Assembly: GCA_031414535.1 (NCBI GenBank)
Contig: JANNVQ010000001.1
Location: 30,744-94,743 of the forward strand
Length of the DNA stretch: 64,000 nucleotides
Source: Gemmatimonas sp.
GTDB lineage: Bacteria; Gemmatimonadota; Gemmatimonadetes; Gemmatimonadales; Gemmatimonadaceae
Reading direction: 5' to 3'
Below, in pieces: positions 24,429 through 45,972 of this stretch; positions within the stretch are counted from its first letter, which is position 1, and each line of letters starts with the position of its first letter. The translations under genes and the position numbers were made by a program. The notes under the pieces were generated by a model. The model was not told where the DNA came from and searched no databases. It saw nothing but the letters and a program-made list of their open reading frames with translations.

Positions 24429-24463
24429 TTTAGTGCGTCTCCGGTGTACGGGTGATAAGTACT

Positions 24464-27949: not shown

Positions 27950-28672
27950 GTGCTCGACACCACCTTTGAGGATCGCCTCCGTACCACGCTGGCCCGTGTG
28001 GACATTCCCGAGACAATCGCAGCGTATCGCGCGCAGGGTGAGGCAATTTGGATTGCCAACCTGCTCGGCCCCGAGCTGATGAGCCCGCTGCTCAGTGAGA
28101 TGGAGAGCGTGCGCGCGCTGGTGCACCGCAACTACGTACCGACGCAGAAGAAGGGCGGCAGTGTCAGTTACTTCCTGCTGCGCGAGCACGCACCGCAACT
28201 CGTGGCGCTGTACAAGCATCCCGCCCTCATTCGCCTGCTGGAACAGATCACAGGCGAGCAGCTCATGGTGTGCCCCGAGGATGATCCCCACGCCTGCGCC
28301 CTCTACTACTACACAGAGGAAGGCGACCACATTGGGTGGCACTACGACACGTCCTTCTACAAAGGCAAACGGTTCACCGTACTCATTGGCCTCGCGGACC
28401 GCTCCTCGAGCCGGCTACTGTGCCGCCTGAATACCAAGACGCCGGGACGTGAGCCCACAGACTTGGCCCTCGCCACCTCGCCGGGCATGCTCGTCGCCTT
28501 CAATGGCGACACCCTCTGGCACGCCGTCTCGCCACTAGGCGCCGGTGAGGAGCGTATCTCCCTGTCGCTGGAGTACGTCACCGATCAGAGCATGTCGCGG
28601 TGGGGACGCATGATCTCCAACGTGAAGGATGCCGTCGCCTATTTCGGGATTCGTGGGATTCTGCGTCGCTAA
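27950..28672 (+). CDS. 2OG-Fe(II) oxygenase
   Basis: GWHYD (HxD), distal WHAV and R-x-S in ERISLS; GAGGAG ribosome-binding site upstream of the GTG start. Confidence 0.82.
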   Translation: MLDTTFEDRLRTTLARVDIPETIAAYRAQGEAIWIANLLGPELMSPLLSEMESVRALVHRNYVPTQKKGGSVSYFLLREHAPQLVALYKHPALIRLLEQITGEQLMVCPEDDPHACALYYYTEEGDHIGWHYDTSFYKGKRFTVLIGLADRSSSRLLCRLNTKTPGREPTDLALATSPGMLVAFNGDTLWHAVSPLGAGEERISLSLEYVTDQSMSRWGRMISNVKDAVAYFGIRGILRR

Positions 28673-28724: not shown

Positions 28725-29393
28725 ATGTGGCGAATTCTCGCTCTCATCCCTTTCGCGCTCGGTGCCCAGCAGATCTCGAGGCCTCCGAGTCCGGCTCATG
28801 CAGAACTCGTGATCGTGCAGGCTGCCATCGCCGATGCGTTCATCGCGGCGGCCAGCGATTCCGTTAACGGCCATATCGAGCGCGCCATTACGCACGCGAG
28901 GCGTGCCGTGGCCCTCGCGCCCCGCGACGCCGACGCGCACTACTGGCTGGCGGCTGCACTGGGGCGGCGCGCGCTCCGTACTGAGTACCGCACGGCACTA
29001 CGCGCTGCGACGGAGTCGTACCGCGAAGCCAATCAGGCCCTGCAGCTCGATTCATTGCACGCCGGTGCGCACGCCGTGGTCGGCCGGTTCAATGAAGAGC
29101 TATCGCGATTCTCGAGGCCCATGCGAATGGTCTTGTCAGCCGTGAGCGGCGAGGAAGACCTGAAGCGCGTGTCCCTCGCGGTCGCGGAACGCCAGTATCG
29201 CAAGGCCATCACACTCGATCCGCGCGCCGTGCTGTTCCGTAACGACTACGGTCGCTTCTTGGTGGGTGTCGGCCGGCTCGCAGAAGCGGCCGAGCAGTCG
29301 CGGGTTGCGCGAACATTGCCGGACCGCATGCCGGCCGACCAATGGCTCCGCGATGATCTTGCCGCGCGGATTGCTCGGGCAAGCGGCAAGTGA
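28725..29393 (+). CDS. Exported TPR-like protein
   Basis: Signal peptide; repeated helical motifs AVALAPRDADAHYWLA, ALQLD...AHA and AITLDP. Confidence 0.7.
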   Translation: MWRILALIPFALGAQQISRPPSPAHAELVIVQAAIADAFIAAASDSVNGHIERAITHARRAVALAPRDADAHYWLAAALGRRALRTEYRTALRAATESYREANQALQLDSLHAGAHAVVGRFNEELSRFSRPMRMVLSAVSGEEDLKRVSLAVAERQYRKAITLDPRAVLFRNDYGRFLVGVGRLAEAAEQSRVARTLPDRMPADQWLRDDLAARIARASGK

Positions 29394-31393
29394 GCGAAGC
29401 CAGAGCGCGGGCTGTGTCCGCGTGGTTCTGGCAACTCGGCGCGGCGACGCTGCGCGGTGTTGCCATTGCCGGCCTGGTGCTCGGTACGGCCGTCGCGGCC
29501 TTACTCTCGGTGGACCGCATCAATCGGCCCGCGCCTGCCGCCGATCTCGGCATCGCCTCGGTAGATCGCAGCGCTCGGCATCGCCGACTGCTCATCTTGC
29601 ACGTGGACAGTTGGCGCGACAGCAGCGCCCGCGACAGCACGCTGTTTCCCTTGACGGCGCAGCTACGTCGGCAGGGCGCATCGGGGACACTGCAGGGCGT
29701 GTACGAGGGGTTCACCATCCCAGCGGTGCGCGCCGCGTTCACCGGGGTTGCCGAGACGCAGTTGGTGAATCTCCTCCAAAACTTCCACTTCACGGCGCTT
29801 CCGCTTTCGTCCGTCTTTCGCGATGCGCAGCGCGTTGGTCGCCGCACCCTGGTGGTGGCGCGTGAACCCTTCGTGCAGTTTGGGCCTGTACTGAAGATTC
29901 GCTACGACAGCATGCCTGGGCAGGACATGTACGCCACCGACGCTCTGCGACCGCAGATTGCGCTCGATGCGTATGCCGAGGGGTATGATGTCGTGGTCTG
30001 TCAGTGGGAGACGTTCGACTGGGTCGCGCATGAAGATGGCGTGAGCACGTTGCGCTATCGCGTCGCCGCGCGACAGGCCGATTCCGTCATCGCCGCCTTC
30101 GCCGCTGCGCGCGCGCCCGAAGACTACCTCTTGGTCTACGGCGACCATGGCCATACGTGGACCGGTGAGCACAAGACTGGGTACGACATTCCGGCCTTCG
30201 TGTTGCTGCTAGGGCCCGACGTGACTGCCGGCGCCGATATCGGCGAGCTCGCCATCACCAACCTGCGGTACCTCGCCAGCCACGCACTCGGCATCACACT
30301 GCGGGGCGCACCCTACGATCTCGCGGCCATTCGGCGCGCTATTCCCATCCGCGGTGAGGCAACGGCTGGTGCGCTAACCGCGACGGACAACGCGACGGGT
30401 GCTGCGAATAACCAGCCGAGCGACAACGCTTCCACCGGACTGAGCGACCGCCCGATGGATTACGTGATTGCCCTCGTCGTCTTTCTTGCCGTTGCCGCCG
30501 TCGCTGCCCTCTGCCTCCGACTCCTCGCCACCCCGTCGTACGCAGTGAGCACGCTACTGCCACCGCTACTCTTGCTCGCCGCAGCGATGCTCCTCACGCC
30601 AAGCATCCCACCCGTGGATGCTTGGCTTCGCCCCGCGGGAGAACTTTGGGTGGTAGTGCTGTACGCCGTGGCGGTGCTAGCGAAGCTCGTGCTCTTCCTG
30701 CGCCGAGCCGACGGGCGTTGGCTCGCGGCAATCATCGCGACCGCCGCCGTGGCGATGTCCGAGTTCTGGAATGTGGTATTCGATCAGCCGCTGGTGATGA
30801 GCGCGTTAATTCTCGCAGCACTCATCGCGTCGTTCGTCCCACGCCAAACGGCGCACAGGGACCTCGCACGCATCGCGCTCCTACAGCTTCTTGTGTATGC
30901 GACGCTCCGAGTGCCACTCTACCTCTTCGCGTGGCTGGACCTCGTACTGTTGGCCGCGTTTCTGATCGCGAAGCATCCACAACTCGTCGCACGACCGGCG
31001 CTGCGCGATGCACTCATCGTACTCACGGCCTATTCGTGCACAATTGGGTGGGTGCCGGGCGGACTGGAGTGGGGCTTCCTCTACAAAGTGTTTCCGGCGC
31101 ACCTCGTGGAACTTGAAGTCCAGCGATTCCTTCCGTTGATTTTGGCCAAGATTCCGCTGGTCTTCGTGCTATTTCTCGTCGTGGCCCGTCGCAGGCCCGA
31201 CCGCGCCCTCGCGCAGGTCGCGATGTTGATGGTGGCGCTGAGGCTCGCCGCGGTATGGACCTTGAGCCTGGCCGGCGCGCCGACGGTGCAACTGTGGCCC
31301 CTCGCGGAGCACGGGGCTTACCTCGCCACCTTCGTCGTGGCCGTGGTCGCTTGGGGATGGCAGCTTCGCTCTGCCGCAAATCGTGTCGGTTAG
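29390..31393 (+). CDS. Membrane AlkP-superfamily transferase resembling GPI ethanolamine-phosphate transferases (PIG-O/PIG-G)
   Basis: One N-terminal TM; soluble domain with LHVDSWR, FTIPAVRAAFTG, FDWVAH, VYGDHG and GEH; long multi-TM C-terminus. Confidence 0.7.
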   Translation: MSEARARAVSAWFWQLGAATLRGVAIAGLVLGTAVAALLSVDRINRPAPAADLGIASVDRSARHRRLLILHVDSWRDSSARDSTLFPLTAQLRRQGASGTLQGVYEGFTIPAVRAAFTGVAETQLVNLLQNFHFTALPLSSVFRDAQRVGRRTLVVAREPFVQFGPVLKIRYDSMPGQDMYATDALRPQIALDAYAEGYDVVVCQWETFDWVAHEDGVSTLRYRVAARQADSVIAAFAAARAPEDYLLVYGDHGHTWTGEHKTGYDIPAFVLLLGPDVTAGADIGELAITNLRYLASHALGITLRGAPYDLAAIRRAIPIRGEATAGALTATDNATGAANNQPSDNASTGLSDRPMDYVIALVVFLAVAAVAALCLRLLATPSYAVSTLLPPLLLLAAAMLLTPSIPPVDAWLRPAGELWVVVLYAVAVLAKLVLFLRRADGRWLAAIIATAAVAMSEFWNVVFDQPLVMSALILAALIASFVPRQTAHRDLARIALLQLLVYATLRVPLYLFAWLDLVLLAAFLIAKHPQLVARPALRDALIVLTAYSCTIGWVPGGLEWGFLYKVFPAHLVELEVQRFLPLILAKIPLVFVLFLVVARRRPDRALAQVAMLMVALRLAAVWTLSLAGAPTVQLWPLAEHGAYLATFVVAVVAWGWQLRSAANRVG

Positions 31394-31400
31394 GACGCCG

Positions 31401-32144
31401 TCACTTCCCTGGCGCGGGTTCGGCGAGGAACATGTAGTTGATGCGATTGTTGTACTGGGCCATGAACTCCGCCTCAGTGAGCGGCGACTTCTTGTCGAGC
31501 CAGTCCTGCATCAACCACAAACGCATGCCGAGTTCGTCCGTCATGAAAGACCAGACGTATTCGGGCTTGGTGCCGTAGAACTCCGCTGAGCCCTGACCAA
31601 ACTCGAATACGATGGTTGGCCGGCTGCGTCGAATAGTATGGACGCCGCCGCGCATGACCATGAACTCGGCGCCTTCCACATCAATCTTGATGAAATCGAT
31701 CTTGACGTCGGCGGGAATGGCATCGTCCATGCGGAGCACCTCAATGATCGTATCGCGCGTCTGGTCTTCGTTCACCGGATACTCGCGGCGTCTAAACCCG
31801 CTGCGCGCCGGCGCCTGAACCGCCAAGACGAAACTCATGGTCCCCGTTGAGTCTCCCAGTGCGCAATTGCAGATCTCGGCTTCAGGGAAGTCCTCTTCCA
31901 ATTGCTGAAAAAAGTTTGGCTGCGGCTCAAAGGCAAAGGTTCGGCCGCGAGGAGCAATCTTCATCAGGTCTTGCAGAATCTCGCCGATGTACGCGCCCAC
32001 GTCGATGCTGGCGCTGGAGTCGTTCATTACGCGGCGCGCCACCTCGATTGTCTGACGGTTGTAGCGCGAGTCCATGCCTTCCTCGCAACCCTGCGTCACC
32101 ACTAAGAGTCCAGCGATCAATGAGACGGAACGAAGATTCAGCAT
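31401..32144 (-). CDS. FkbM family methyltransferase
   Basis: IDVGAYIG, FAFEPQP, NCALG, KIDFIKIDVEGAE and RPTIVFE. Confidence 0.9.
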   Translation of the reverse strand: MLNLRSVSLIAGLLVVTQGCEEGMDSRYNRQTIEVARRVMNDSSASIDVGAYIGEILQDLMKIAPRGRTFAFEPQPNFFQQLEEDFPEAEICNCALGDSTGTMSFVLAVQAPARSGFRRREYPVNEDQTRDTIIEVLRMDDAIPADVKIDFIKIDVEGAEFMVMRGGVHTIRRSRPTIVFEFGQGSAEFYGTKPEYVWSFMTDELGMRLWLMQDWLDKKSPLTEAEFMAQYNNRINYMFLAEPAPGK

Positions 32145-32240: not shown

Positions 32241-33044
32241 CTACACGCGTTCACCACCAGCGATTGAACGAAGGGCATCGGTAACGATCCAGTGCCCACG
32301 GTTCACGAAATGCCACGCCGCGCCGAGCAACTGCGTCAACTGGAACCGAGGACTCCGCGCGCGCGCGCGAAAGCGCGCGCTGATGCGCGGCCAGTCCTGA
32401 GGCCCGACGAGCGGCCGTGCGCTACGCCAGAAGTTGCTCGCTTCTGTGGATACGGCAGGTGCGCTGAACCGGCTCATCACCAACGGCCCGGCAAGTGCGC
32501 CGTACATGCGCTCCATCGCGACCTCAGGCTCTGCAGGGCCGGGCAACCATGATCCGTAGAACGGGACTCGACTGAGGGGCAAGAGTTCCCGCTCCCGGAG
32601 GTGGCGACGCGGTTCGTGTGCATCGAAGTGCGCACCATCTGCCGCTGCCGTGCGCGTAAGTAATCCCAGTTCCGTCAGCCCAGCGTGAGCGAAGGGAACG
32701 AGCGTCGTCGGAAACGCAAAGAAGTATCCATGCTGACGCCGGAACCTGAGGGTGAACCCGTGCGCGCGACAGACCGCAGCAAAGCGCGAATCAAGATCTT
32801 GCGTTGAAGCGTCGAGGAGGAAAGCGTCGGCGTCGTCATCCCAGGGCAGCAAGCCTTGCAGACGCAGCGCTCCGAGCAGCAGTCCTTTGTGCGCCACCGG
32901 GGTAAATCCGTGCTCCTCGAGCGCCGAGATGACGAAAAGCAGGCTATCGACGGCGTCGGTCGCGAACCACGACGGCATCATCAGGATGCGCGGTCGATTA
33001 CTGGGACGTAGCTCCCTCAGCTTGCCGCGGAGCCCGGTCAGCAT
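32241..33044 (-). CDS. LicD family phosphotransferase
   Basis: GLLLGALRLQGLLPWDDDAD matches the LicD GTLLGAVRH.GFIPWDDDID motif; LLPL..VPFYG...P and MYG; the ATG overlaps the upstream stop (TGATG). Confidence 0.8.
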   Translation of the reverse strand: MLTGLRGKLRELRPSNRPRILMMPSWFATDAVDSLLFVISALEEHGFTPVAHKGLLLGALRLQGLLPWDDDADAFLLDASTQDLDSRFAAVCRAHGFTLRFRRQHGYFFAFPTTLVPFAHAGLTELGLLTRTAAADGAHFDAHEPRRHLRERELLPLSRVPFYGSWLPGPAEPEVAMERMYGALAGPLVMSRFSAPAVSTEASNFWRSARPLVGPQDWPRISARFRARARSPRFQLTQLLGAAWHFVNRGHWIVTDALRSIAGGERV

Positions 33045-34060
33045 CAGTTGGCGCGGTCGAGCTTTGCGTTCACCCACACCCAGTGGTGCCTCCATCCCAA
33101 CAGAATACGCCGCAGCGTGAGGATGTAGCGTGCGCCCAGCCAAACACCGAGGACCATCGCCGCAGTCGTCGCCATCGACGAAGGAAGCAACCACAGCAGC
33201 CCAGCGCCAAGCACCGCGCTCCACGTTGGCTCAGGATGCCCGCCCGTGGTGGTGTGCGCATGCATCAGCCGTGCAATCATCTCCGCGCCGGCGCCGGCGA
33301 CGAGCAGCCACCCCCACACCGGATGCACACCTGCGCGCTGCGCCCATACGGCCAAGGCCACGAGTGCGGCCAATTGTACCGCCACGCGCCACGGCAGGCC
33401 GCGCAGAGATCGCATGATGGTCACGCTCACGCTCGCGGCCATTACGCAGCCGAGCACCGTCACGACCGCGTGCCGCGGCCAGGCACCGACCCACAGGGGT
33501 GCGGACCACCACTCACGCATCGCCGGAAGAGCCCAACTGCCATAAAACAGCGTGGCGAGTACGATGGCCTCGAGCGTGCCCCATCGAGTGAAGTGCAAGC
33601 GGCGCTGTATTGCACGCTGGGCGTAGGTAATCGTGAAGCCCGCGACCATGAGCAAGGTCATCAGCGGGGTGAGCGGGGTGGCCAAGGTGCCAAGCATGGC
33701 GCCCCACCCGAATACCAGAATGCAGCCTGCCCAGTAATCGCAGTGGTGGTCGAGGAAGTCTCCAAGTGGGGAGGTCGTCCCGGTGGCCTTCGCCTGCATG
33801 CCATCCAAGTGATCGCCGGCTACGTAGAGCTGGATGCAGAGCAGTTGCAGGAGCGCGAACCAAGTAGCACCGAGTCGCTCGACGACGAGCGCGCCCGCCA
33901 ACACCGCCAGGAGCAGACCGGTTGACAAGAGCGTGAGCACGTTCGCAGCCAGCCATCGCGGCAGCAGCGGGAACAAGCGCTCGAACCACAGGCGCGTGAG
34001 CCACGGACGAGCTACCGACGCATCGGTGAACTCGTAACGGTTATCGGGCGTAGAAGGCAC
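33044..34060 (-). CDS. CDP-alcohol phosphotransferase of the eukaryote-like CEPT/EPT type
   Basis: LPRWLAANVLTL and DHLDGMQAKATGTTSPLGDFLDHHCD (DxxDGxxAR...GxxxDxxxD, with K for R); multiple TM segments. Confidence 0.85.
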   Translation of the reverse strand: MPSTPDNRYEFTDASVARPWLTRLWFERLFPLLPRWLAANVLTLLSTGLLLAVLAGALVVERLGATWFALLQLLCIQLYVAGDHLDGMQAKATGTTSPLGDFLDHHCDYWAGCILVFGWGAMLGTLATPLTPLMTLLMVAGFTITYAQRAIQRRLHFTRWGTLEAIVLATLFYGSWALPAMREWWSAPLWVGAWPRHAVVTVLGCVMAASVSVTIMRSLRGLPWRVAVQLAALVALAVWAQRAGVHPVWGWLLVAGAGAEMIARLMHAHTTTGGHPEPTWSAVLGAGLLWLLPSSMATTAAMVLGVWLGARYILTLRRILLGWRHHWVWVNAKLDRAN

Positions 34061-34114
34061 GGCGGGAATCTAGCGCATGCCTCGGCGGCTGAGAGAGCTG
34101 ATAGATTGTCTCAA

Positions 34115-35710
34115 ATGGATTCTCATAAGTCCCCCGCCAGTTCCCCCGCCGCCCACCTCCGCGCCCTCTGGGCCGCAGGGAAGGTCGTCCGCACCGCTGG
34201 TGCCCACGACGTCCTAGGCGCGCGCCTCGCCGTGCGGGCAGGCGTTGATGCCATCTGGGCGTCTGGCTTTGAACTCTCCACGGCCCACGGCGTCCCCGAT
34301 GCCAGCATCCTCACCATGACAGACATGCTGAGCGCCGCCCAGAGCATCGCGCAGGGCGTGGCACCGGTTCCCGTCATCGCCGACTGCGACACTGGCTTTG
34401 GCTCGTCAGCGAATGTCATCCGAATGGTCCAGCTCTTTGAGGCCGCTGGGGTCGCCGCCGTCTGCCTCGAGGACAAGCAGTACCCCAAGCTCAACAGCTT
34501 CGTCGCCGGCAAGCAGGAACTGGCGTCCATCGCAGAGTTCGTCGGCAAACTGCTGGCAGCGAAGAACGCCCAGCGAGATCCCAATTTCATTGTCATCGCC
34601 CGCACCGAGGCACTTATTGCCGGTTGGGGAGTTGACGAAGCAATCCGCCGTGGGCAGGCCTACGTGCGCGCCGGCGCGGATGCCCTCCTCATCCACGACA
34701 AGTCGCCCAACGGTGAGCTCATGCGTGAGGTGCTCTCGCGCTGGCGTCCCGAAGTTCCGGTCGTCGTCGTACCCACGACCTACCCAGCCTTTGGCGTGGC
34801 CGAGTGCGAAGCACATGGCATCTCCACTGTTATCTGGGCCAACCAGGGAATTCGTGCGGCGGCCCAGGCCATCGGCGACACCTGGGCGCAGATTCTACGT
34901 GACGGACACACCGCCGACGCTGAGCGCACAATCGCACCGATGCGCACGCTGTTCGAACTGCAGGGCATGCCCGCGCACACGGCCGCCGAGAAGAATTACG
35001 ATCGCGCCGGCGTGGTCCCAACGCGCGCCGTCATTCTCCATGCCGGCGCGCATGCCGATGAGCCCACGCTCGCCCCGCTCACCGCCGATGCCCCGCTCGC
35101 GGCGCTGGACATCAACGGCGCCTCTCTGTTGGAGCGTCAGATGACGGCGCTACGGCAGTGCGGCGTGACAGACATTACGGTCGTTGGAGGCTTTCGCGCC
35201 GATGCGCTGCCGGAGAGCGACGCACGCGTGGTGGTGAACGCTGAGTGGGCCAGCACCGGCGAGATGGGCTCCCTGCGCTGCGCCGGCACGGATGAGCGAC
35301 GCACCTTGGTGTGCTACGGCGACATCATCGTGCAACCCGATTTGCTGCGGCGACTCCTGCGATGCGACGACCCGGCGGTGATTGTGGTAGACCGCACACC
35401 ATCAGCGAACACGCGAGACCCGGTGCGTATGCCAAACGAACGCAATGGCCACCGCTTCCTCTCACCGGAAGCACCAACGCCGGTGGAAGCGATTGGCAGG
35501 GGCGTCGAGGGCGCCAACGCCGAGTTCACCGGACTCGCACTGCTTGACGCCGAGCACTTCGACCGCCTCATCGCGGCGGCCGACCCGCTTCGCTCGCTCC
35601 CCGATGCGCTAGCAACGGTCCAACTCGTCGCGCTCGAGGTCACGAGTGGTTGGCTCGAGCTCCGCTCATTTTCACACTACGAAACCGCCTGCCGCCAGAC
35701 CACACGATGA
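34115..35710 (+). CDS. pepM: Phosphoenolpyruvate mutase fused to a C-terminal NTP-transferase-like domain
   Basis: Diagnostic EDKQYPKLNS (EDKxxxxxNS); WASGF, GVPDAS, ADCDTGFG, ARTEALIAG and VVVPTTY. Start is ATG 34115 or TTG 34106. Confidence 0.95.
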   Translation: MDSHKSPASSPAAHLRALWAAGKVVRTAGAHDVLGARLAVRAGVDAIWASGFELSTAHGVPDASILTMTDMLSAAQSIAQGVAPVPVIADCDTGFGSSANVIRMVQLFEAAGVAAVCLEDKQYPKLNSFVAGKQELASIAEFVGKLLAAKNAQRDPNFIVIARTEALIAGWGVDEAIRRGQAYVRAGADALLIHDKSPNGELMREVLSRWRPEVPVVVVPTTYPAFGVAECEAHGISTVIWANQGIRAAAQAIGDTWAQILRDGHTADAERTIAPMRTLFELQGMPAHTAAEKNYDRAGVVPTRAVILHAGAHADEPTLAPLTADAPLAALDINGASLLERQMTALRQCGVTDITVVGGFRADALPESDARVVVNAEWASTGEMGSLRCAGTDERRTLVCYGDIIVQPDLLRRLLRCDDPAVIVVDRTPSANTRDPVRMPNERNGHRFLSPEAPTPVEAIGRGVEGANAEFTGLALLDAEHFDRLIAAADPLRSLPDALATVQLVALEVTSGWLELRSFSHYETACRQTTR

Positions 35711-36831
35711 CGGCACTCGTGTCTTCTGCGGGATTCGTTGACGCCTGCACCGCGAAGGGACTCGGCCCTTGGCTCGGCGTGCCGTGTTCGTTCCTGCGCC
35801 CTTTCATCAACTACGTCATTGGTCGCTCCGATCTCGACTACGTAGCGGCGACCAACGAAGGCGAAGCGCTCGCAATCGCCGCAGGAACTTGGCTGGCCGG
35901 CCGCACGCCGGTGGTGATGTTGCAGAACTCGGGCTTGGGCAACCTCATCAACCCGCTAGCGTCTCTCAATTATCCGTTCCGTATTCCGGCCTTGATCATC
36001 GTGACCTGGCGAGGCGAGCCAGGACGTCCCGACGAGCCGCAGCATGAGCTCATGGGGCAGGTCACAGGGCAGCTCCTTGACGTACTGCATGTGCGACACG
36101 AGCCGTTTCCGGCGCGCGACGAGGATGTACCGGCAGCCGTCGAGCGCGCCACCGCGCACATGAGGGAAACGGGACTTCCCTTCGCGTTCATTTTGCGCAA
36201 AGGCACGGTCACCGACCACGAGCTGCCGAGCAATGGTACCGATGACGTGCCCCGCCCTGCGCGCCGCGACGCATTGCAGGCCATCGGCGAGGCTATCAGC
36301 GAGCAGACCATCGTCGTGGCCACCACTGGCAAGACGGGCCGTGAGTGGTTTGAAGTAGGAGATCGCGCGCGCAATCTCTATTTGGTGGGCTCCATGGGAT
36401 GCGCACCGAGCGTCGCGCTCGGTGTGGCCCGCCAGCAAACCGACCCCGTGTTGGTGATTGATGGCGATGGTGCCGCGCTGATGCGGCTTGAAGCGTGGGC
36501 GTCCGTGGGCCATCAAGGCCCGCGGCAGTTCGTGCATGTAGTGCTCGACAACGCGGCCTACGATTCCACCGGTGCGCAGGCGACCATCAGTCCGCACGTG
36601 GACTTTCCGGCGATTGCCCGCGCGCTCGGGTACCGGAGCGCGCAAGCGGTACTCGATGCCGCCGCGCTCTCGCGCGCAGTTCGTGAGGCGCAAGCGAGTG
36701 CTGGCCCGCATTTGATTCACTGCCGCATTGGTCTTGGCTCACCGCCTGAGCTCAGCCGACCGTCAGTTGCCCCGCGTGAGGTCGCGCGTCGCGTGCGCGC
36801 AGCGATCTCGACATCGGAGCAGCCACAGTGA
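35707..36831 (+). CDS. ppd: Phosphonopyruvate decarboxylase
   Basis: GVPCSFL, TNEGEA, MLQNSGLGN..NPL.SL, DEPQHELMG, TTGKTGRE, VGSMG and DGDGAALM; ATGA overlap with pepM. Confidence 0.95.
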   Translation: MTALVSSAGFVDACTAKGLGPWLGVPCSFLRPFINYVIGRSDLDYVAATNEGEALAIAAGTWLAGRTPVVMLQNSGLGNLINPLASLNYPFRIPALIIVTWRGEPGRPDEPQHELMGQVTGQLLDVLHVRHEPFPARDEDVPAAVERATAHMRETGLPFAFILRKGTVTDHELPSNGTDDVPRPARRDALQAIGEAISEQTIVVATTGKTGREWFEVGDRARNLYLVGSMGCAPSVALGVARQQTDPVLVIDGDGAALMRLEAWASVGHQGPRQFVHVVLDNAAYDSTGAQATISPHVDFPAIARALGYRSAQAVLDAAALSRAVREAQASAGPHLIHCRIGLGSPPELSRPSVAPREVARRVRAAISTSEQPQ

Positions 36832-37889
36832 TTCTCTTCTCTCCTGGTCCGTCCAACATCAGCGAGCGGGTACGGAACGCGCTGCTGCATCCTGACATCG
36901 GTCACCGCGAACCGGAGTTCGGCGCGCTGCTAAACGATGTGCGCAATGGCATCCGCGACGTGTGCGATGTACCCGCATCATACGAAATCGTGTTCCTCGG
37001 CGGCTCCGGCTCAGTGGGCATTGAGTCTGTGGTTGCGGCGGCAGGGCCGCTCGGCAAACTGCTGGTGATTGCCAATGGTCCCTACGGCGAGCGTGCGGCT
37101 GCGATGGCGCGTCATCACGGCACGACAACCGATGAGTGGCGCTTGCCTTGGGGCGCGGCCATTCCGCTGGACGAACTGGATGCACGCCTGCGCGACGGTG
37201 GCCATGGTGCGGTGTACGTGGTGCATCACGAGACCGCCACGGGACGACTGAATCCGCTTGCTGACATCGCGGCCGTAGCGAAGCGTCACGGCGCGCAGAT
37301 GCTTGCCGACACCATCAGCTCCATTGGCGGTGAAGTGCTCCACATCGAAGGCTGGAGCCTCGACGCGGTGATTGGTAGCGCCAACAAGTGCTTGCGCGGA
37401 GTGCCGGGCGCGGCCTTTGTGATTGCCTCGCCGCGTTTCGGCGCAGCGGCGCGCCAGCAGAAGGCTGCCCACTACAGCAATTACGCTTCACACGCCGACG
37501 GACAGCTGAAGGGAGAGTTCCCCTTCACGCCGCCGCTGCACGCGATGTTTGCGTTGCGTGAGGCAGTGGCTGAGACTCGCGATGAAGGCCCGGCGCAGCG
37601 CATCGCGCACTATGCGTCGCTGATGGATTGCTTGCGGGTGGGACTCGATGCACTTGGGCTTTCGCCGATTATCGCACGCGAGCACGGCGGCCACACGATT
37701 GCGGCGATGCCGTTGCCCGAGGGCTGGACCTATGCGCGCCTGCACGACGCGCTGAAGGCCGACGAACTGGTGATCTACGCCGCGCAGGGGCCACTCGCCG
37801 CCACGCACTTTCGCGTGGGCCTCATTGGTCACTACGGTCTCGAGGCAGTAGAGCAATTACTTGCGGCGCTCGGGCGGCATCTCACGTGA
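36828..37889 (+). CDS. aepZ: 2-aminoethylphosphonate aminotransferase (class V PLP enzyme)
   Basis: LFSPGP, DIGHREPEF, NGPYGER, VHHETATG.LNP, SANKCLRGVPG and PFTPP. Confidence 0.9.
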   Translation: MILFSPGPSNISERVRNALLHPDIGHREPEFGALLNDVRNGIRDVCDVPASYEIVFLGGSGSVGIESVVAAAGPLGKLLVIANGPYGERAAAMARHHGTTTDEWRLPWGAAIPLDELDARLRDGGHGAVYVVHHETATGRLNPLADIAAVAKRHGAQMLADTISSIGGEVLHIEGWSLDAVIGSANKCLRGVPGAAFVIASPRFGAAARQQKAAHYSNYASHADGQLKGEFPFTPPLHAMFALREAVAETRDEGPAQRIAHYASLMDCLRVGLDALGLSPIIAREHGGHTIAAMPLPEGWTYARLHDALKADELVIYAAQGPLAATHFRVGLIGHYGLEAVEQLLAALGRHLT

Positions 37890-38608
37890 TGCACGCGCTC
37901 ATTCTCGCGGCCGGCGTTGGCTCACGGCTGGGCCTCGCCGATGACCGACCCAAATGCTTGGTGGAAATCGGCGGCCGCGCGCTTCTTGATCGCTACCTCG
38001 ATGCACTCGCGCTACTCGGCGTCCCAGTGACCATCGGGGTCGGCCACCAAGCCGAGCGCATCGCGGCGCACGTGGGCACACGGGCACAGTTGGTGGTGAA
38101 CCCCAACTACAAGCAGGGCTCGATTACCACGCTCGCGCACACGATGCAGAGCCTTCCGCCAGGGATTGAGCAGTTACTCGTCCTCGATGGCGATGTGTTT
38201 GCGCCCGCCTCGTTCTTCGCGACGCTTGTTGCTCACAATGGCAACGCCTTGCTGGTGGATATCGGGACGGAGTTCACCGACGAGCAGTACATGGCCGGTA
38301 TCACCGCGGACCGCGTCCGGCAGTTGCGGCGCGGGCCGGTGCCGGGGCACGAGCAGCACGGCGAGTGGGTGGGCTTCGCTCGCTTGACCGCGTCGGCCGT
38401 CGAAGCGCTGCGAAATGGCGTGGCCGTGCAGGTGGGGCGCGGTGAAGTGTCGGGTGGGTACGAGGACGCGCTGGCCTCGCTGCTTACTACGCACCATGTG
38501 GTGGCGCTAGCGACGCAGGGCGCGCCGTGGGTGGAGATTGATTTTCCGGCGGATCTGGCGCGGGCGGGTGAGCTTGCTGCGAACGAGCGGACCGAAGGTC
38601 CGCACTAA
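37889..38608 (+). CDS. PntC/LicC-like (phosphonate) cytidylyltransferase
   Basis: ALILAAGVGSRLG...RPKCLVEIGG, LDGDV, GEWVGF, YEDAL and WVEIDFPADL; TGATG overlap with the aminotransferase. Confidence 0.85.
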   Translation: MHALILAAGVGSRLGLADDRPKCLVEIGGRALLDRYLDALALLGVPVTIGVGHQAERIAAHVGTRAQLVVNPNYKQGSITTLAHTMQSLPPGIEQLLVLDGDVFAPASFFATLVAHNGNALLVDIGTEFTDEQYMAGITADRVRQLRRGPVPGHEQHGEWVGFARLTASAVEALRNGVAVQVGRGEVSGGYEDALASLLTTHHVVALATQGAPWVEIDFPADLARAGELAANERTEGPH

Positions 38609-40454: not shown

Positions 40455-42083
40455 ATGCGTATCCCGTTGCTGATTGTGCTCGCGCTGGCGGCCCCCTCTT
40501 GGGGCCAGGCTGCCGCACAGGGAATTCCGGTCGGCGGGTGGATTGAGGATTACGCGCGGATGCTGCAGCTCACGGGGCAGATTCCCGTGACCCCTCTCAC
40601 AGTGCGCCCGAACGCTCTCAGCGACTTACGCGCGCTGTCCGCCGCGACCGGCTCGCATGCTTGGCGCGCGGCGATTGAGAATCGCACGACTCGTGAGGTC
40701 GCCGGCAGCGGCTTCCGCGTACAGGCGCTGCCCTCGGAGGTGCAGACCTTTGCGAACACCAGCCGTCCCTGGGGATGGAACGACGGCGCCGTGTGGCAAG
40801 GCAAGGCGGTCACGCTCGCGGCGCAGACAGGCGCAGAAGCACGATGGGGACCGGTCACGCTGACGCTTGCGCCCTTGATCACGTACAGCGCCAATGTCGA
40901 TTTCGACCTGTCGCCGATTCCGGTGCCGACCGGACTGTCGCCGTATGCTTACCCGGTCATTGGTGGTGGGACGCTGGATGCCCCGCAACGCTTTGGCAGT
41001 GAGCCGGTGCAGCGCCTCGACTGGGGGAACACGAACCTGCGTGTGGATTGGGGGCCCGTGGCACTCGGCCTATCGCATGAGAGCTTGTGGTGGGGCCCTG
41101 GGCGGCGGAATGACATCTTGCTCACCAACAACGCACCGGGATTTTGGCACGCCCATCTCTCGCTCAACAAGCCCGTCTCGGTCGGCATTGGCACGATTAG
41201 CGGTCGTTGGATCTGGGGCAGCCTGCGGGAGTCGGCCTTCTTCGACACCATTCCGGCAAACGACCGGCGCTATATGACAGGCGCGGCCATCGCCTTCGTA
41301 CCGCGGTGGGCGAAGGGCCTTGAATTGGGTGCGGCCCGCCTCTTCCTCGAGACTTGGACGCACCCCAGAGGGCTGAACGAGATTCTCTACCTCGTTCGCC
41401 CCGTGTTCAAGCGTTCGCAATTCAGCGCCAGCAATCCCGAGGGCGACGACAACCAGGACCAAGTCGCGGCCGTGTTTGCGCGCTGGACCCTGCCGGCCTC
41501 GGGCTTGGAACTATACGGCGAGTGGGCAAAGGGTGATCACAGTGCCGACCTTCGCGATCTGCTCGTGGAGCCGGAACACGCCAGCGCGTACTTGATGGGC
41601 CTCCAGAAGATTCTATCGCACACACCCGAGCGCACGTGGCGCTTCGGTAGCGAACTTACGATCCTCGGCGCTCCACGCAGCGCAGTGGCAAGATACGCAG
41701 GCGCTGGATTCTTCTACGTCCATTACGAGATTGGACAGGGTTACACGCAGCGAGGTCAGATTCTCGGTGCCGGTATCGGCCCGGGCTCCTCGCAACTCTC
41801 ACTGGCGCTCGACCGCTTCGCCCCTTGGGGCAGCGTCGGCGTCGCGTTCCTCCGCACGGTGTATGACAACGACCGATTCTTCAGGCAGCCGAGCCCCCAG
41901 AGTGGGAGTAGCGAGGTGGAGCCCAGTGTGTCGGCAAACGCGATGGTCTTTCGGGGCCCCTGGGATTTCTCTGCATCGGTCACGGGGAGTAGCTTATTTA
42001 ACCATCGGTACATACCGGGCAACGATTCGTACAACGTGAACGTGAGCATCAGCGCGCGCTACCATCCCTCGAGGGCACGGTGA
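40455..42083 (+). CDS. Capsule assembly Wzi family outer-membrane protein
   Basis: Signal peptide; WNDGAVWQGK, LWWGPG....LLTNNAPG and YTQRGQILGAGIGPGS. Confidence 0.7.
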   Translation: MRIPLLIVLALAAPSWGQAAAQGIPVGGWIEDYARMLQLTGQIPVTPLTVRPNALSDLRALSAATGSHAWRAAIENRTTREVAGSGFRVQALPSEVQTFANTSRPWGWNDGAVWQGKAVTLAAQTGAEARWGPVTLTLAPLITYSANVDFDLSPIPVPTGLSPYAYPVIGGGTLDAPQRFGSEPVQRLDWGNTNLRVDWGPVALGLSHESLWWGPGRRNDILLTNNAPGFWHAHLSLNKPVSVGIGTISGRWIWGSLRESAFFDTIPANDRRYMTGAAIAFVPRWAKGLELGAARLFLETWTHPRGLNEILYLVRPVFKRSQFSASNPEGDDNQDQVAAVFARWTLPASGLELYGEWAKGDHSADLRDLLVEPEHASAYLMGLQKILSHTPERTWRFGSELTILGAPRSAVARYAGAGFFYVHYEIGQGYTQRGQILGAGIGPGSSQLSLALDRFAPWGSVGVAFLRTVYDNDRFFRQPSPQSGSSEVEPSVSANAMVFRGPWDFSASVTGSSLFNHRYIPGNDSYNVNVSISARYHPSRAR

Positions 42084-42709
42084 CATCCGGCCACTTCGTG
42101 TCCAATCGTGATGAATCGCCGCGTCTGTTCATGACGCCGTGGCTAGAACGGCTCTCGCACGTACATCCCGCGGTGCCGATCCTGCTCTATGCGCCGGTCA
42201 TAGCATTCTTTACGTGGCGCGCATTGGCAACGTCGAGCTTGCTGGGAACCCTAAGTCAGCTCTTGGCTGGACTGCTCGTGTGGACCCTCGTCGAGTACGC
42301 CTTGCATCGCTGGGTGTTCCACTACGAGCCGACAACGACGTGGGGGCAGCGTATCCATTTTCTCTCGCACGGTGTGCATCACGACTACCCGCGTGACAGC
42401 ACGCGCTTGGTCATGCCACCCGCGGTCAGCCTGCCTCTCGCGGTGCTGTTCTGGGCGAGCTTCAGCCTGCTCACGACACGGTACGCCGATGGGCTGTTCG
42501 CAGGTTTCGTACTCGGATACCTGATGTACGACATGATTCACTTCGCCACCCACCACTGGCCAATGCACGGTCGGATTGGGCGCGCACTCAAGCGCTACCA
42601 CCTCTTGCATCACTACGACGACGACGACGCAGGTTTCGGTGTGAGCTCGCCACTGTGGGATGCCGTGTTCGGAACCCTACCGCGCCGGCGCCAAGGCGCG
42701 AAAAGCTAG
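42080..42709 (+). CDS. Fatty acid 2-hydroxylase (FA2H/Scs7-like)
   Basis: His boxes EYALHRWVFH, HGVHHDYP.D..RLVMPP, YDMIHFATHH and KRYHLLHHY; GFGVSSPLWD.VFGT. Confidence 0.88.
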   Translation: MTSGHFVSNRDESPRLFMTPWLERLSHVHPAVPILLYAPVIAFFTWRALATSSLLGTLSQLLAGLLVWTLVEYALHRWVFHYEPTTTWGQRIHFLSHGVHHDYPRDSTRLVMPPAVSLPLAVLFWASFSLLTTRYADGLFAGFVLGYLMYDMIHFATHHWPMHGRIGRALKRYHLLHHYDDDDAGFGVSSPLWDAVFGTLPRRRQGAKS

Positions 42710-43836
42710 TGGAATCGGTCGTTGTAGCCTTCGCCGCGCCAGTGGATCGGGCGCTTGCTGAGCAACGAGACGGCGAGAATCGGTAGCATCACGACCTGTA
42801 CGAGCTGAAGGAGCAGCGGCTCGTAGAACCGCAGGTGACTGCCCGCACGACGCGCTTGGGTTCCCAACAACCAAACGTCGGCTAGGCACTTCGCGGCGAC
42901 AACGAGAGCCCAGGGAATGAGCGCTAAGCGCCAGCCCAACAGCATTAGGGCCGCGACGACCGTCCCCCACAGGATCGCGGCCGCGAGCCCCAATGCGTAT
43001 CGCCAGTCCTGGGCCACGCCACCGCCTAGGAAGCGTCGCATCTGGCTCAGCAAATGCGCGGGCGATGGGACGGGCGTGAGCACCGCCGCAGTCTCTGGGT
43101 CAAGGTAGTTCTGCATTGTGCCCCCGTCCGCCGTTGCCAAGTGGAAGAGCGTCAGGTCTTCGGCCACTCGTCCCGGTACTGCCTGCAAACCGCCGCCGCG
43201 CTCATACGCGCTGCGCCTGATTCCCATGTTTGGGCCAACCGCCGCAACTGCCGCGCCCCAGCCAGCGAGGCCGTGGTTGATTGGCTGCAGCATCAAGTTC
43301 AGTACCCGCTCGGCGGCGCCCCACCATTGCCGTGGCTCCACGAGAACCGTGCCGCCCACAACGGTGTCCTCACACGTGGCAGCGCCAATCATGTGCCGCA
43401 CCCACTTGGGCGGCACCGCAGCATCCGCGTCCGTGATCAACACCCACGCTCCAGTGGCATGCGCAAAGCCATGAGCGATGCCGCGCGCCTTGGCTGCGAG
43501 CCCGTTGTCGGGGAGCGCAGACGTGTGGAGCGCGAGCACGTGCGGATGCGCACGGGCGACGGCGTCAATCAATGCTCCGGTTCCGTCAGTGGAGCGATCG
43601 TTGACGAGCACCAGCTGCAGCATGCCCGCTGGATACTCCAGCGCCAACAAGGCCGCGAGACAGCGCGGCAGATCACGCTCCTCATTCCGTGCGCTGACCA
43701 CCACCGTCACGGCAGGCGCCTGCGCATCGCTGATGGATCGTGAGCGCGCGAGCCGACGAATGCCAAGCACCAAGACCACAACCGCGAGCGGGTAAATGCC
43801 GACACAGACCAGCATAGCGATTACGAGCGGATCCAC
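42706..43836 (-). CDS. Membrane GT2 glycosyltransferase, candidate ceramide glycosyltransferase
   Basis: N-terminal TM; VSARNEE, VNDRSTD, ITDAD, AEDL and QMRRF (QxxRW-like); last gene of the SPT operon. Confidence 0.8.
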   Translation of the reverse strand: MDPLVIAMLVCVGIYPLAVVVLVLGIRRLARSRSISDAQAPAVTVVVSARNEERDLPRCLAALLALEYPAGMLQLVLVNDRSTDGTGALIDAVARAHPHVLALHTSALPDNGLAAKARGIAHGFAHATGAWVLITDADAAVPPKWVRHMIGAATCEDTVVGGTVLVEPRQWWGAAERVLNLMLQPINHGLAGWGAAVAAVGPNMGIRRSAYERGGGLQAVPGRVAEDLTLFHLATADGGTMQNYLDPETAAVLTPVPSPAHLLSQMRRFLGGGVAQDWRYALGLAAAILWGTVVAALMLLGWRLALIPWALVVAAKCLADVWLLGTQARRAGSHLRFYEPLLLQLVQVVMLPILAVSLLSKRPIHWRGEGYNDRFH

Positions 43837-44801
43837 TTCGCCTCCCGGTACCACTCGTAGGTGCGCGCCCATCCATCGGCGCGTGTGACGAGCGGTCGCC
43901 AGCCCAGCGTCTGAGTGAGCCCAGTCGCCGCGCAAAGCCAGTAGGCATGCCGCGCGAGATCGAGCTTGGCGCGGGTGAGCAGCGGATCCATCCCGCGCAG
44001 GCCTGCAACGAACTCGCTGCCGATAGCCGCCACCCACAACGCGGCTGCAGGTACCGTTAGACGCGGTGGCGAGCGGCGCAGCACCGCCGAAATCTCGTCA
44101 TATACGCTGCCCCAGGTCGCGGGCGCGCCATCTTCCACAAAAAAGCTTCGTCCCAAGGCTTCCTCGCGCACCGCCGCCAGACGCAGCGCCGCCACGACAT
44201 CATGCACATGCACGAGCGATAAACCATGCCACGAAGGCGAGGCCTGCAGCGCGAGCGGACGGCGGAGTTGCTCAAACACCTGCAGGAAGTCACGGTCGCG
44301 AGGGCCATACACGGCCGAAGGCCGAATGATCACCGCTGGCAAGCCCGCGCCGCGCACCGCCGCCTCGGCCTGGAACTTGCTCTGGCCATAGGCATCAACC
44401 GGCTGCGCGTCATCAGCATCAGTCACGGGCGCCTGTGCCGAACGTGCTGGGCCCGCCGCCGCCTGCGAGGACACAAACACTAGTCGCGGCACCGAGCTGA
44501 GTTGCGCGAGAACCTCGGCAAGACGCGCCGTTGGTTTCACGTTGTCCATCGCGAAGTCAGCAGGATTGAGCGCACGCGTTCGCGCCGCGAGGTGAAACAC
44601 ATGCGTCGCCCCCTGCCACAGACTCGCCTTCCGCGCATCCGCCGCGAAGAGATCCACCATGTGCGCCGTGGTGCCACGCGGCGCCGGTCCCTGCGCCACG
44701 CCTGGACGTCGCAGCACGCGCACTTCAACCCCGTCGGCGACCAGCGAGTCCACGAGGTTCGCGCCAATAAAGCCGGAGGCACCGGTAACAACGGCAATCA
44801 T
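43821..44801 (-). CDS. NAD(P)-dependent epimerase/reductase, candidate ceramide reductase (CerR-like)
   Basis: VTGASGFIG, FHLAA, VSSQAAAGP, YGQSK and RPSAVYGPRD; the CerR role is inferred from context. Confidence 0.8.
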   Translation of the reverse strand: MIAVVTGASGFIGANLVDSLVADGVEVRVLRRPGVAQGPAPRGTTAHMVDLFAADARKASLWQGATHVFHLAARTRALNPADFAMDNVKPTARLAEVLAQLSSVPRLVFVSSQAAAGPARSAQAPVTDADDAQPVDAYGQSKFQAEAAVRGAGLPAVIIRPSAVYGPRDRDFLQVFEQLRRPLALQASPSWHGLSLVHVHDVVAALRLAAVREEALGRSFFVEDGAPATWGSVYDEISAVLRRSPPRLTVPAAALWVAAIGSEFVAGLRGMDPLLTRAKLDLARHAYWLCAATGLTQTLGWRPLVTRADGWARTYEWYREAKWIRS

Positions 44802-44811
44802 ACGTGACGCG

Positions 44812-45972
44812 TCACTGCGGCGAAGGCCCGATGGCGCGTTCGTAGAGGCGCCACCGCATGCACTCGTCCGCACCAAGGGAACGCATGGATTTCACGATGA
44901 GATGGTTGTCCTCGAGCAACCACGAAGCCTCGGCGCGCTTGGTCACCGCGCTCTTCAGGCCACGCTGCATCAACTCGCGCGTGAACAAGGGCAGGATGGG
45001 ACGTGAGCGGAACGCCGAACGCACGCCGAGTGCCATCACGCGAATAGAAGGTGCGCGACGCTTGTGCCACAGCAGGCGCAGCAATCCCATAGGAATGAGC
45101 CTGCCGCTTCGGTGATTCCGGAGCGTGTCGTTGAAGTCAACCACCGAAAGGAGAAATGCCACGGGCACGCCATCCACGGATGCGATGTAGCAGTAGCCGG
45201 GCGCCAGCAGGTGCCGCACATCCTTGGCCAAGTGGCGGAACTCTGCTTCCGTGAACGGCACGAAGCCCCAGTTCGCTTCCCACGCCTCGTTGTAGATGTC
45301 CCAGAGGATTGCGACCTCGCGATCGAAGTGCTGCGGCTCGATGTCGCGGAGCGTGATGCCTGCGCGAAGCGCGCGCTCGCTGTGTCGCTCGAGGATTGGC
45401 GGCGGCGTGAAGTTCGGCGTACTCACATCAAAGCGAAATCCAAGCAGATCCTTTGCTTGCCGACACCCCGCCTCAATACAGAGCCGGTCGTAGTACGGCG
45501 GATTCCATGCCGTCATGAACGTGGGGCGCAGCTCAAACCCGCCCACGAGTAGCCCACACTCGTAATTCGTGCTCGGGTTGAAGGGCCCGCTCATGCTGGT
45601 GAGTCCGCGCGCCCCAAGCCAGTCAGCGGCGGCGGCGAATAGGGCCGTGGCCGCCTCCTGATCATCCATGCACTCGAAAAAGCCAAAGAATCCCACGCTG
45701 TCCCCGTGGAATCGGTTGTGGGCTCGATTCTCGATTGCGGCAATGCGGCCCACGATCTCGTCGCCACGCATCGCGAGCAGGAGTTCACGCGATGCGTCGG
45801 CGTAGAACGGATGGCTCGGGCGCAACGCATCCTCCACCGACATGCGCAGTGGCGGGACCCAGTTGGGATACTGCTCAGGCTGGTAGAGCTGCCACGCGAA
45901 ATCTATGAATCGCGTGAGGTCCCGCCGACTTTCAACGCGGCGGATGACGACGGGAAGAGCGGAGTGGCGCAC
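44812..45972 (-). CDS. GNAT-type N-acyltransferase, bacterial ceramide synthase (bCerS)-like
   Basis: WVPPL, GRIAAI.N..HN, GFFGFFEC, GPFNPSTN.ECGLLV.GF, NPPYY, YNEAWEANWGFVP and EASWLLEDN. Confidence 0.8.
   Translation of the reverse strand: MRHSALPVVIRRVESRRDLTRFIDFAWQLYQPEQYPNWVPPLRMSVEDALRPSHPFYADASRELLLAMRGDEIVGRIAAIENRAHNRFHGDSVGFFGFFECMDDQEAATALFAAAADWLGARGLTSMSGPFNPSTNYECGLLVGGFELRPTFMTAWNPPYYDRLCIEAGCRQAKDLLGFRFDVSTPNFTPPPILERHSERALRAGITLRDIEPQHFDREVAILWDIYNEAWEANWGFVPFTEAEFRHLAKDVRHLLAPGYCYIASVDGVPVAFLLSVVDFNDTLRNHRSGRLIPMGLLRLLWHKRRAPSIRVMALGVRSAFRSRPILPLFTRELMQRGLKSAVTKRAEASWLLEDNHLIVKSMRSLGADECMRWRLYERAIGPSPQ

Follow-up and report, generated by a model that had tools for sequence, protein, structure and literature searches.

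The 'Burkholderiales_CDP-OH' pepM cluster, which corresponds to the Group 1 phosphonolipids of Yu et al. 2013, is the most common bacterial phosphonolipid cluster and comprises seven genes, encoding Ppm-PntC, Ppd, AEPT, a 2-oxoglutarate (2OG) oxygenase, a second PntC and two proteins of phospholipid synthesis; its product is uncharacterised and is predicted to contain 1-hydroxy-2-aminoethylphosphonate (1-hydroxy-AEP) (Li and Horsman 2022, PMC8942020). The same paper links the 2OG oxygenase to the 1-hydroxylation of AEP, and the sole structurally known bacterial phosphonolipid that it names is a sphingolipid with 1-hydroxy-AEP. For Bacteriovorax stolpii, which has a ceramide 1-hydroxy-2-aminoethylphosphonate, the available part of PMC8942020 describes a pepM neighbourhood (GCF 761) in which PepM is fused to a PF12804 cytidylyltransferase, and names no gene for head-group transfer. 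Here we describe a further cluster, found in a stretch of 64,000 nucleotides from Gemmatimonas sp. (GenBank assembly GCA_031414535.1, contig JANNVQ010000001.1, positions 30,744 to 94,743 of the forward strand; this whole stretch is referred to as the window), in which genes for the synthesis of AEP stand head to head with the gene for a eukaryote-type CDP-alcohol phosphotransferase (33044..34060, minus strand; hereafter the transferase). We put this enzyme forward, with the balance about even, as a candidate CMP-AEP:ceramide phosphonotransferase.

Within the CDP-alcohol family, the insect ceramide phosphoethanolamine synthase moves a phospho-base from a CDP donor to ceramide, and among the sphingolipids of many marine invertebrates ceramide aminoethylphosphonate is a major one. 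In the bacterium Treponema denticola a 1,2-diacylglycerol choline phosphotransferase (Vences-Guzman et al. 2017) carries out the last step of a CDP-alcohol (Kennedy-type) pathway that ends on a lipid acceptor, and in the available part of PMC6805115 it uses CDP-choline from LicCA to make phosphatidylcholine; it is likened to the transferase by description only, and it differs in that donor and that product. For the eukaryotic enzymes, the portion of the 2023 CHPT1 structure paper available to us (PMC10182977) terms helices 7-10 eukaryote-only and holds the extended eukaryotic signature proposed by Wang et al., D1xxD2GxxAR...G2ExxD3HxxD4, whose Glu/His pair is the proposed catalytic base and is absent from most bacterial enzymes. 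CMP-AEP was established as the activated form of AEP by Rice et al. 2019 (PMC6697681, as far as its text is available). Full-text literature searches, judged mostly by title and abstract, returned no paper naming a gene that joins AEP to ceramide, a gene for phosphonosphingolipid biosynthesis or a bacterial CDP-type ceramide phosphoethanolamine synthase, and those for pepM together with CDP-alcohol returned, by title and abstract, only papers on other subjects.

The transferase is 338 amino acids (aa) long from a GTG start, and its residues 36-178 match the Pfam family PF01066 (CDP-OH_P_transf) at 26.4 bits against a gathering cut-off of 22. A preliminary description of this DNA had given the gene as 33044..34114; the open reading frame (ORF) exists but ends at 34060, the overshoot arising because the intergenic spacer at 34061-34105 had been counted in. 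Both strings that it quoted occur in the translation, GDHLDGMQAKATGTTSPLGDFLDHHCD as residues 82-108 and PRWLAANVLT as residues 34-43. A word-indexed search of 5.8 billion proteins found 88 relatives at E<=1e-3, the closest with 90% identity and the named sources almost all Gemmatimonadota proteins from metagenome-assembled genomes (MAGs), and these relatives, together with a third-position GC content (GC3) of 0.79, indicate a real and conserved gene. The labels that the relatives already bear are only 'CDP-alcohol phosphatidyltransferase family' or 'phosphatidylglycerophosphate synthase'. The best NCBIfam matches of the transferase, archaetidylinositol-phosphate and PIP synthases, lie far under their cut-offs, and a plasmid collection held no match to it. 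By profile search the family is small, with 95 of 1.84 billion cluster representatives matching at E<=1e-30, 578 at E<=1e-10 and 2086 at E<=1e-3.

The likeness to CEPT and CHPT enzymes rather than to PgsA or PssA, originally proposed from the motif strings, was borne out by phmmer, a family profile, Foldseek and VIA-align. Against all PDB chains, phmmer matched Xenopus and human CHPT1, human CEPT1 and yeast CPT1 (E 7e-10 to 6e-7), beyond which there was noise, with antibody light chains at E>0.1. A profile of 26 family sequences retrieved the same five CHPT1/CEPT1/CPT1 sequences from the PDB with E-values of 6e-17 to 2e-15; CDP-alcohol phosphotransferases of prokaryotes or archaea were absent from its matches at E<=1. 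The AlphaFold2 model built from the same alignment (mean pLDDT 88.3, pTM 0.88) was matched by Foldseek over its full length to CEPT1, CHPT1 and CPT1 (E 4.6e-10 to 2.7e-7, TM 0.72-0.77), best to CEPT1 (E 4.6e-10, TM 0.77, 378 columns), whereas the six-helix enzymes AF2299, PgsA1, PIPS, PgsA and PSS gave about 200 columns at a TM of about 0.4 and E>0.06. With VIA-align the four structures 8ul9, 9uet, 8ero and 8gyw gave Z values, in descending order, of 32.6, 31.9, 31.3 and 31.3, and aligned 325-329 residues over the span 1-331 of the model at a root-mean-square deviation of 2.8-3.2 A; the six-helix enzymes gave Z 7-14 and ended at about residue 220 (span 13-221), those with Z 10-14 aligning 168-188 residues. 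Because the eukaryotic match runs over residues 1-331 and the six-helix match stops at about 220, helices 7-10 are present in the predicted model, and the transferase, as modelled, has the ten-helix CHPT1/CEPT1 fold. It shares with CHPT1, CEPT1 and CPT1 (8ero, 9uet, 8gyw, 8ul9) this fold and the Asp motif on helices 2-3, and differs from them in sequence (16-18% identity), in its bacterial host and in its genomic partner, which here is phosphonate synthesis in place of a pathway with a choline/ethanolamine kinase.

The motif reads D83-H-L-D86-G-M-Q-A-K91 ... G100-D101-F-L-D104-H105-H-C-D108, with D83, D86, G87, A90, G100, D104 and D108 spaced as in CEPT1. We aligned 59 family members, drawn from 61 related loci (described below) and the window after removal of three rows shorter than 250 aa. 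The position of His105 is His in every one of them, and G2 is followed by Asp in 13 rows (the window and L001-L012) and by Glu in the other 46; by this alignment the conserved His105 and Asp101 are the counterparts of the catalytic pair proposed for CHPT1. The position of the motif Arg is occupied by Lys in 55 rows (Lys91 here) and by Val in four. The head-group pocket of xlCHPT1, mapped through Glu43 and Trp50, is not kept in the family. Glu43, which in the available part of PMC10182977 holds the quaternary amine of the head group, aligns in HMMER to Arg18 here, is replaced by Leu in the delta/SAR324 clade and by Thr in Bacteroidota, and is Glu in no clade; Trp50 corresponds to Trp25 and is matched only in the Gemmatimonadota clade. 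Five residues upstream of Arg18, Asp13 is found in all 58 rows that cover the position, the row of L020 being without its N-terminus. Since the His/acid pair is kept and Glu43 is not, the architecture and catalytic core appear CHPT1-like and the head-group site different. The transferase thus resembles CHPT1, CEPT1 and CPT1 in the His after D3 and the acidic residue after G2, and departs from them in Lys for the motif Arg, in Asp for Glu after G2 within the Gemmatimonadota clade and in the amine-binding Glu.

Across a divergent intergenic spacer of 45 bp (34061..34105, read from the sequence) from the transferase begins the set of AEP genes, all on the plus strand. The distance of about 50 bp to the pepM start given in the preliminary description holds, at 45 bp to a TTG start and 54 bp to the first ATG (34115). 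The first gene (34106..35710) encodes phosphoenolpyruvate mutase (PepM) fused to a PF12804 nucleotidyltransferase of PntC type (PF13714, 185 bits, residues 18-264; PF12804, residues 332-428; TIGR02320, 256 bits) and is the sole PepM of the source genome (3.7 Mb, 98.4% complete). It is followed by a phosphonopyruvate decarboxylase (Ppd; 35650..36831; TIGR03297, 394.9 bits against a cut-off of 312.5), whose true start is probably an ATG near 35707 that overlaps the pepM stop, by a 2-aminoethylphosphonate aminotransferase (36828..37889; TIGR03301, 278 bits, the top-scoring family but under the equivalog cut-off of 360.8) and by a second, stand-alone PF12804 nucleotidyltransferase (NTP2; 37889..38608; 55.7 bits), which is a predicted cytidylyltransferase. 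The pepM/ppd and aept/NTP2 junctions overlap by one to four bases, similar to the junction of the transferase with the LicD-family gene on its other side, where the LicD-family ATG overlaps the transferase stop codon as TGATG (33042-33046). A sigma-70 consensus scan of the 45-bp spacer found no promoter-like site, and shuffled sequences also gave about none; we infer shared regulation of the transferase and pepM solely from their conserved divergent arrangement.

That arrangement is seen well beyond the window. A pattern scan of one genome per species, among whose returned genomes that of Bacteriovorax stolpii was not included, gave 94 pattern matches, 61 of them confirmed as related loci, and their content was scored by tblastn of the window proteins, with PepM counted as present in a locus at >=100 bits. 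Thirteen of the loci are from Gemmatimonadota (10 with PepM), 38 from Bacteroidota, mostly Chryseolinea, Ohtaekwangia and Cyclobacteriaceae (33 with PepM), and 10 from delta/SAR324, Pseudomonadota and Spirochaetales genomes, where the loci hold no PepM, no ceramide-pathway gene lies within 10 kb and the context is one of housekeeping genes with an adjoining LpxD-like hexapeptide transferase. PepM lies upstream on the opposite strand in 38 of the 43 PepM-bearing loci, with less than 800 bp between aligned ends in 32, so the head-to-head pairing is conserved across two phyla. CMP-AEP as the donor is supported by these counts of PepM in the same locus in Gemmatimonadota (10/13) and Bacteroidota (33/38), and in the source genome no choline/ethanolamine kinase of PF01633 was found. 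The loss of the amine-binding Glu43 in every clade is counted in favour of this donor as well.

The comparison with the Group 1 cluster, for which a Mycetohabitans megaplasmid reached through a PepM query of the plasmid collection served as reference copy, separates the AEP genes from those that face the lipid. The two clusters have in common the PepM-PF12804 fusion, Ppd, the AEP transaminase, a second cytidylyltransferase and the 2OG oxygenase, all five of which are in the window. The second PntC is 35% identical to NTP2, and the Group 1 oxygenase is 47% identical (E 2e-81) to its ortholog, a 2OG/Fe(II) oxygenase at 27950..28672 (plus strand), which sits 4.4 kb past the 3' end of the transferase and so does not form part of a single operon. 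The transferase of Group 1, in contrast, is a protein of 231 aa and six-helix type that has in common with ours only a 38-residue stretch around the motif (E 7e-5), is without the His after D3 and has Leu where ours has His105. Searched by tblastn, neither it nor the MprF-like protein of Group 1 matched anything in the window at E<=1e-3 or in any of the 61 related loci at E<=1e-5; in their place here are the CHPT1-type enzyme and an NPP-domain protein, near sphingolipid genes. As the cassette orthologs match and the transferase and MprF-like protein do not, the AEP cassette is shared with Group 1 and the lipid-facing enzymes are unrelated, which suggests that the cassette is a module joined to different lipid pathways via unrelated transferases. 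What appears to be new here is the pairing of pepM, in a predicted phosphonolipid cluster, with a eukaryote-type transferase in a sphingolipid setting, the AEP cassette being already known.

The predicted sphingolipid gene set occupies 42080-55237 of the window, 8 kb from the transferase on the side away from the LicD-family gene. On its minus strand it encodes a fatty acyl-AMP ligase/carrier protein/alpha-oxoamine synthase fusion of 1105 aa (Spt-type; 45932..49249; PF00501, PF00550 and PF00155), a GNAT (Acetyltransf_6) protein like bacterial ceramide synthase (bCerS-like; 44812..45972; PF13480, E 2.7e-5) and a CerR-like NAD-dependent epimerase/reductase (43821..44876; PF01370, 96.5 bits), which is syntenic with Spt-type and bCerS-like genes in related loci. 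Also on this strand are two GT2/GT21 glycosyltransferases, one of the ceramide glucosyltransferase family (42706..44037; PF00535 and PF13506) and a second at 52841..54241 (PF13641, PF13632 and PF13506), and a sphingolipid delta4-desaturase-type protein (54272..55237; PF08557 Lipid_DES, 53.3 bits against a cut-off of 23, and PF00487), which is eukaryote-like through its Lipid_DES domain. The plus strand carries a fatty-acid/sphingolipid hydroxylase family protein (42080..42709; PF04116, 71.5 bits) and an MsbA-like ABC exporter (51050..52872, its start approximate within a long ORF from 50191; PF00664 and PF00005; TIGR02203, 325 bits from residue 306). An ORF of 591 aa without a Pfam or NCBIfam match (49282-51057, minus strand) overlaps the spurious 5' extension of the exporter ORF, and has a counterpart of 45% identity in L003 that adjoins sphingolipid and GT21 genes. 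A hopanoid reading of the set was put aside, as the CerR-like and GT21 genes match HpnA, HpnB and HpnI only far under their cut-offs, the cluster holds an oxoamine synthase fusion, a GNAT protein and a Lipid_DES desaturase, and the Pfam scan of window ORFs showed no gene of hopanoid synthesis.

The strongest pointer to ceramide as the acceptor is the way the genes are ordered in Gemmatimonadota. Seven of the 13 loci of this phylum have bCerS-like, Spt-type or CerR-like genes no more than 10 kb away from the transferase, and at the edge of an eighth locus (L001) there is a CerR fragment. The usual order (L007-L010) is NTP2, aminotransferase, Ppd and PepM, followed on the opposite strand by the transferase, oxygenase, NPP-domain protein, CerR-like gene, Spt-type fusion and bCerS-like gene; over all 13 loci, NTP2 is found in 11, the NPP-domain protein in eight, the 2OG oxygenase and GT21 in seven each, LicD in two and FkbM in one. 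L003 (genome G306, 5.9 Mb) has an NTP2-transferase pair directly inside a sphingolipid cluster in a genome that holds no true PepM (no match to the protein query, and a best TIGR02320 score of 58 bits against 258 bits in the source genome), and in L012 PepM is on another contig than the transferase, so the transferase stays with ceramide genes even where phosphonate genes are elsewhere or missing. L011 (genome G307) likewise has the NTP2-transferase pair, with no true PepM found in the genome. Of seven genomes sampled from the genus of the window, the two with the transferase (the source and G299) also have a bCerS-like gene and the other five have neither, and among five further carriers without ceramide genes at the locus a bCerS-like gene is found elsewhere in four. 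The precedent of a sphingolipid with 1-hydroxy-AEP also favours ceramide, and the cluster carries a 2OG oxygenase tied to 1-hydroxylation.

If the transferase is a CMP-AEP:ceramide phosphonotransferase, PepM, Ppd and the transaminase would make AEP, one or both PF12804 nucleotidyltransferases would make CMP-AEP, and C1 of AEP would possibly be hydroxylated by the 2OG oxygenase. Ceramide would come from the acyl-AMP ligase/carrier/oxoamine-synthase fusion with the CerR-like and bCerS-like genes. The transferase would then move the phosphonate from CMP-AEP, or its 1-hydroxy form, to the 1-hydroxyl of ceramide, at the cytoplasmic face and with two Mg2+, as in CHPT1, to give ceramide aminoethylphosphonate, a product of the same class as the lipid of Bacteriovorax stolpii. 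The preliminary description had read the enzyme as linking CMP-AEP to ceramide or diacylglycerol, and every computational test run (fold, motif, pepM pairing and ceramide synteny) agrees with it.

Several observations weigh against ceramide in particular, or against the whole proposal. All solved relatives of the transferase use diacylglycerol, and in place of the motif Arg, the residue that binds the diphosphate in CHPT1, the transferase has Lys and four of the 59 aligned sequences have Val. The 'ceramide' is itself a prediction, because the oxoamine-synthase part of the fusion scores 355 bits with BioF and 291 and 276 bits with serine palmitoyltransferase models, all under their cut-offs. 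No ceramide-pathway gene lies within 10 kb in any of the 38 Bacteroidota loci, and co-occurrence there is uninformative and was dropped as a test of the acceptor: bCerS-like matches occur in 5/5 carriers tested, but also in 137 of 151 sampled genomes of the order, and the transferase in one of the 151, the query genome itself. Among the Gemmatimonadota, a search of genome G307, whose completeness is unknown, turned up no PepM and no bCerS-like gene. Of 301 sampled genomes of this phylum, 188 have bCerS-like homologs at E<=1e-10 (124/125 in one family, 10/69 in the window's own family) against two with the transferase, so that most predicted sphingolipid producers do without it; as these two carriers, both of one genus, are too few, a co-occurrence statistic for the phylum sample was dropped.

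An acceptor other than ceramide is the alternative that survives best, and we consider it possible but unlikely: AEP would pass from CMP-AEP to 1,2-diacylglycerol, giving a phosphono-analogue of phosphatidylethanolamine, and the sphingolipid genes would be neighbours in a general island of envelope-lipid genes. The four solved full-length matches are the diacylglycerol-using CPT1, CHPT1 and CEPT1, one of them solved with diacylglycerol bound, and 33 of the 38 Bacteroidota loci have the transferase with pepM and no ceramide gene within 10 kb. Ordinary glycerolipid synthesis is also present, since the source genome has four other CDP-alcohol phosphotransferase genes. To our knowledge, however, bacterial CDP-diacylglycerol pathways do not usually place the head group on free diacylglycerol, and the synteny with Spt-type, bCerS-like and CerR-like genes is tight and repeated in 7 of the 13 Gemmatimonadota loci, including the PepM-less genome whose transferase lies inside the cluster.

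Another proposal, compatible with either acceptor, would treat the AEP-lipid mainly as an intermediate, from which the adjacent NPP-type membrane protein moves AEP to a periplasmic or outer-membrane acceptor; we regard it as doubtful. Phosphatidylethanolamine is the donor for EptA and for the glycosylphosphatidylinositol (GPI) ethanolamine-phosphate transferases. The protein in question (29390..31393, plus strand; 667 aa) has an N-terminal helix, an NPP-type domain of the alkaline phosphatase superfamily and a polytopic C-terminal half, a layout that recalls the GPI ethanolamine-phosphate transferases, and in its model (pLDDT 75.8) a single N-terminal helix precedes an alpha/beta domain, after which come about ten helices in the C-terminal half. 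It stands beside the transferase in 8 of the 13 Gemmatimonadota loci (e.g. L003:11028-12962, whose ortholog is over the PF01663 cut-off), and the aligned orthologs have the invariant Asp, His and Gly-Asp-His-Gly typical of the superfamily. Foldseek matched the domain to bacterial NPP, ENPP6, ENPP7 (alkaline sphingomyelinase), LtaP and YejM, and the ESM Atlas gave 'hypothetical' PF01663 clusters at 0.97 and eukaryotic GPI ethanolamine-phosphate transferases 1-3 at 0.90. In Bacteroidota a second, different partner from the alkaline phosphatase superfamily is seen: a protein of about 610 aa with N-terminal membrane helices and a PF00884 sulfatase domain, in the layout of EptA and LtaS, is found in 29 of the 38 loci (e.g. 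L056:4487-6316, L023:11028-12863 and L058:3589-5451). The relay was proposed because both phyla thus carry a membrane protein of this superfamily beside the transferase, and it is drawn from architecture and gene neighbourhood only; the same domain could be a hydrolase, ENPP6 and ENPP7 being phosphodiesterases, the Atlas value of 0.90 is at the level of a lead and the model is middling. Taken jointly, the proposals would make this the first gene for phosphonosphingolipid head-group attachment, a ten-helix CMP-AEP:ceramide phosphonotransferase whose lipid is also the donor for NPP-type (Gemmatimonadota) or EptA/LtaS-type (Bacteroidota) transfer onto envelope glycans or glycolipids, which we hold to be improbable in its entirety; if true, it would be a phosphonate counterpart of the relay from phosphatidylethanolamine to the surface.

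A donor that is not a phosphonate is very improbable: NTP2 would make CDP-ethanolamine, CDP-choline or another CDP-alcohol for a phosphate-linked ceramide or glycerolipid, and AEP would go elsewhere, e.g. onto a glycan via the LicD-family protein (32241..33044, minus strand; PF04991, 29.6 bits), as might fit the NTP2-transferase pairs of L003, L011 and L012 without pepM in the locus (two of these genomes without a true PepM), the PepM-less clade of the family in delta/SAR324-type genomes, the LicD-family gene, two GT2 genes and Wzi that stand next to the AEP genes in the window, and the discussion of LicD-like transferases for phosphonoglycans in the available part of PMC6697681, but 43 of the 51 loci from Gemmatimonadota and Bacteroidota taken together include PepM, LicD is in only 2/13 and 0/38 of them respectively, the genome yielded no PF01633 kinase, and the Glu43 that holds choline or ethanolamine amines in CHPT1 is Arg here.

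The LicD-family gene is taken as accessory because it is found in only two of the related Gemmatimonadota loci, and the FkbM-family methyltransferase gene beyond it (31401..32144, minus strand; PF05050, 78 bits; TIGR01444, 93.8 bits) likewise because it is rare, occurring in 1/13. Farther off, at 17574-19256 on the minus strand, a class I S-adenosylmethionine-dependent methyltransferase is fused to a GT2 glycosyltransferase. Three Sortilin/BNR-repeat proteins of about 1000 aa and two pairs of amidase and serine beta-lactamase-family genes, spread over 3095-14965 and 10238-24482, are unrelated to the transferase.

Within the wider family, a quick maximum-likelihood search with a midpoint root (in which the L002 row is an artefact of trimming an over-long ORF) placed the Bacteroidota sequences in one supported clade and the Gemmatimonadota clade nested among PepM-less sequences. 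The ten-helix proteins of L013-L019, L021 and L022, from delta, SAR324 and Pseudomonadota MAGs, form a PepM-less clade whose genes are convergent with that of an LpxD-like hexapeptide transferase, and in L014 and L016 the transferase follows a protein of 680-750 aa with a weak DUF1615 match. This clade may be a bacterial Kennedy-type lipid synthase. The Spirochaetales member L027 is also without pepM. Cultured carriers of the family include Chryseolinea sp. H1M3-3 and Splendidivirga corallicola BMA10.

The transferase family provides a clonable candidate for the step that joins AEP to ceramide. The ten-helix architecture, called eukaryote-specific in the available part of PMC10182977, is predicted here in a small bacterial family, and this bears on the origin of the Kennedy-pathway transferases.

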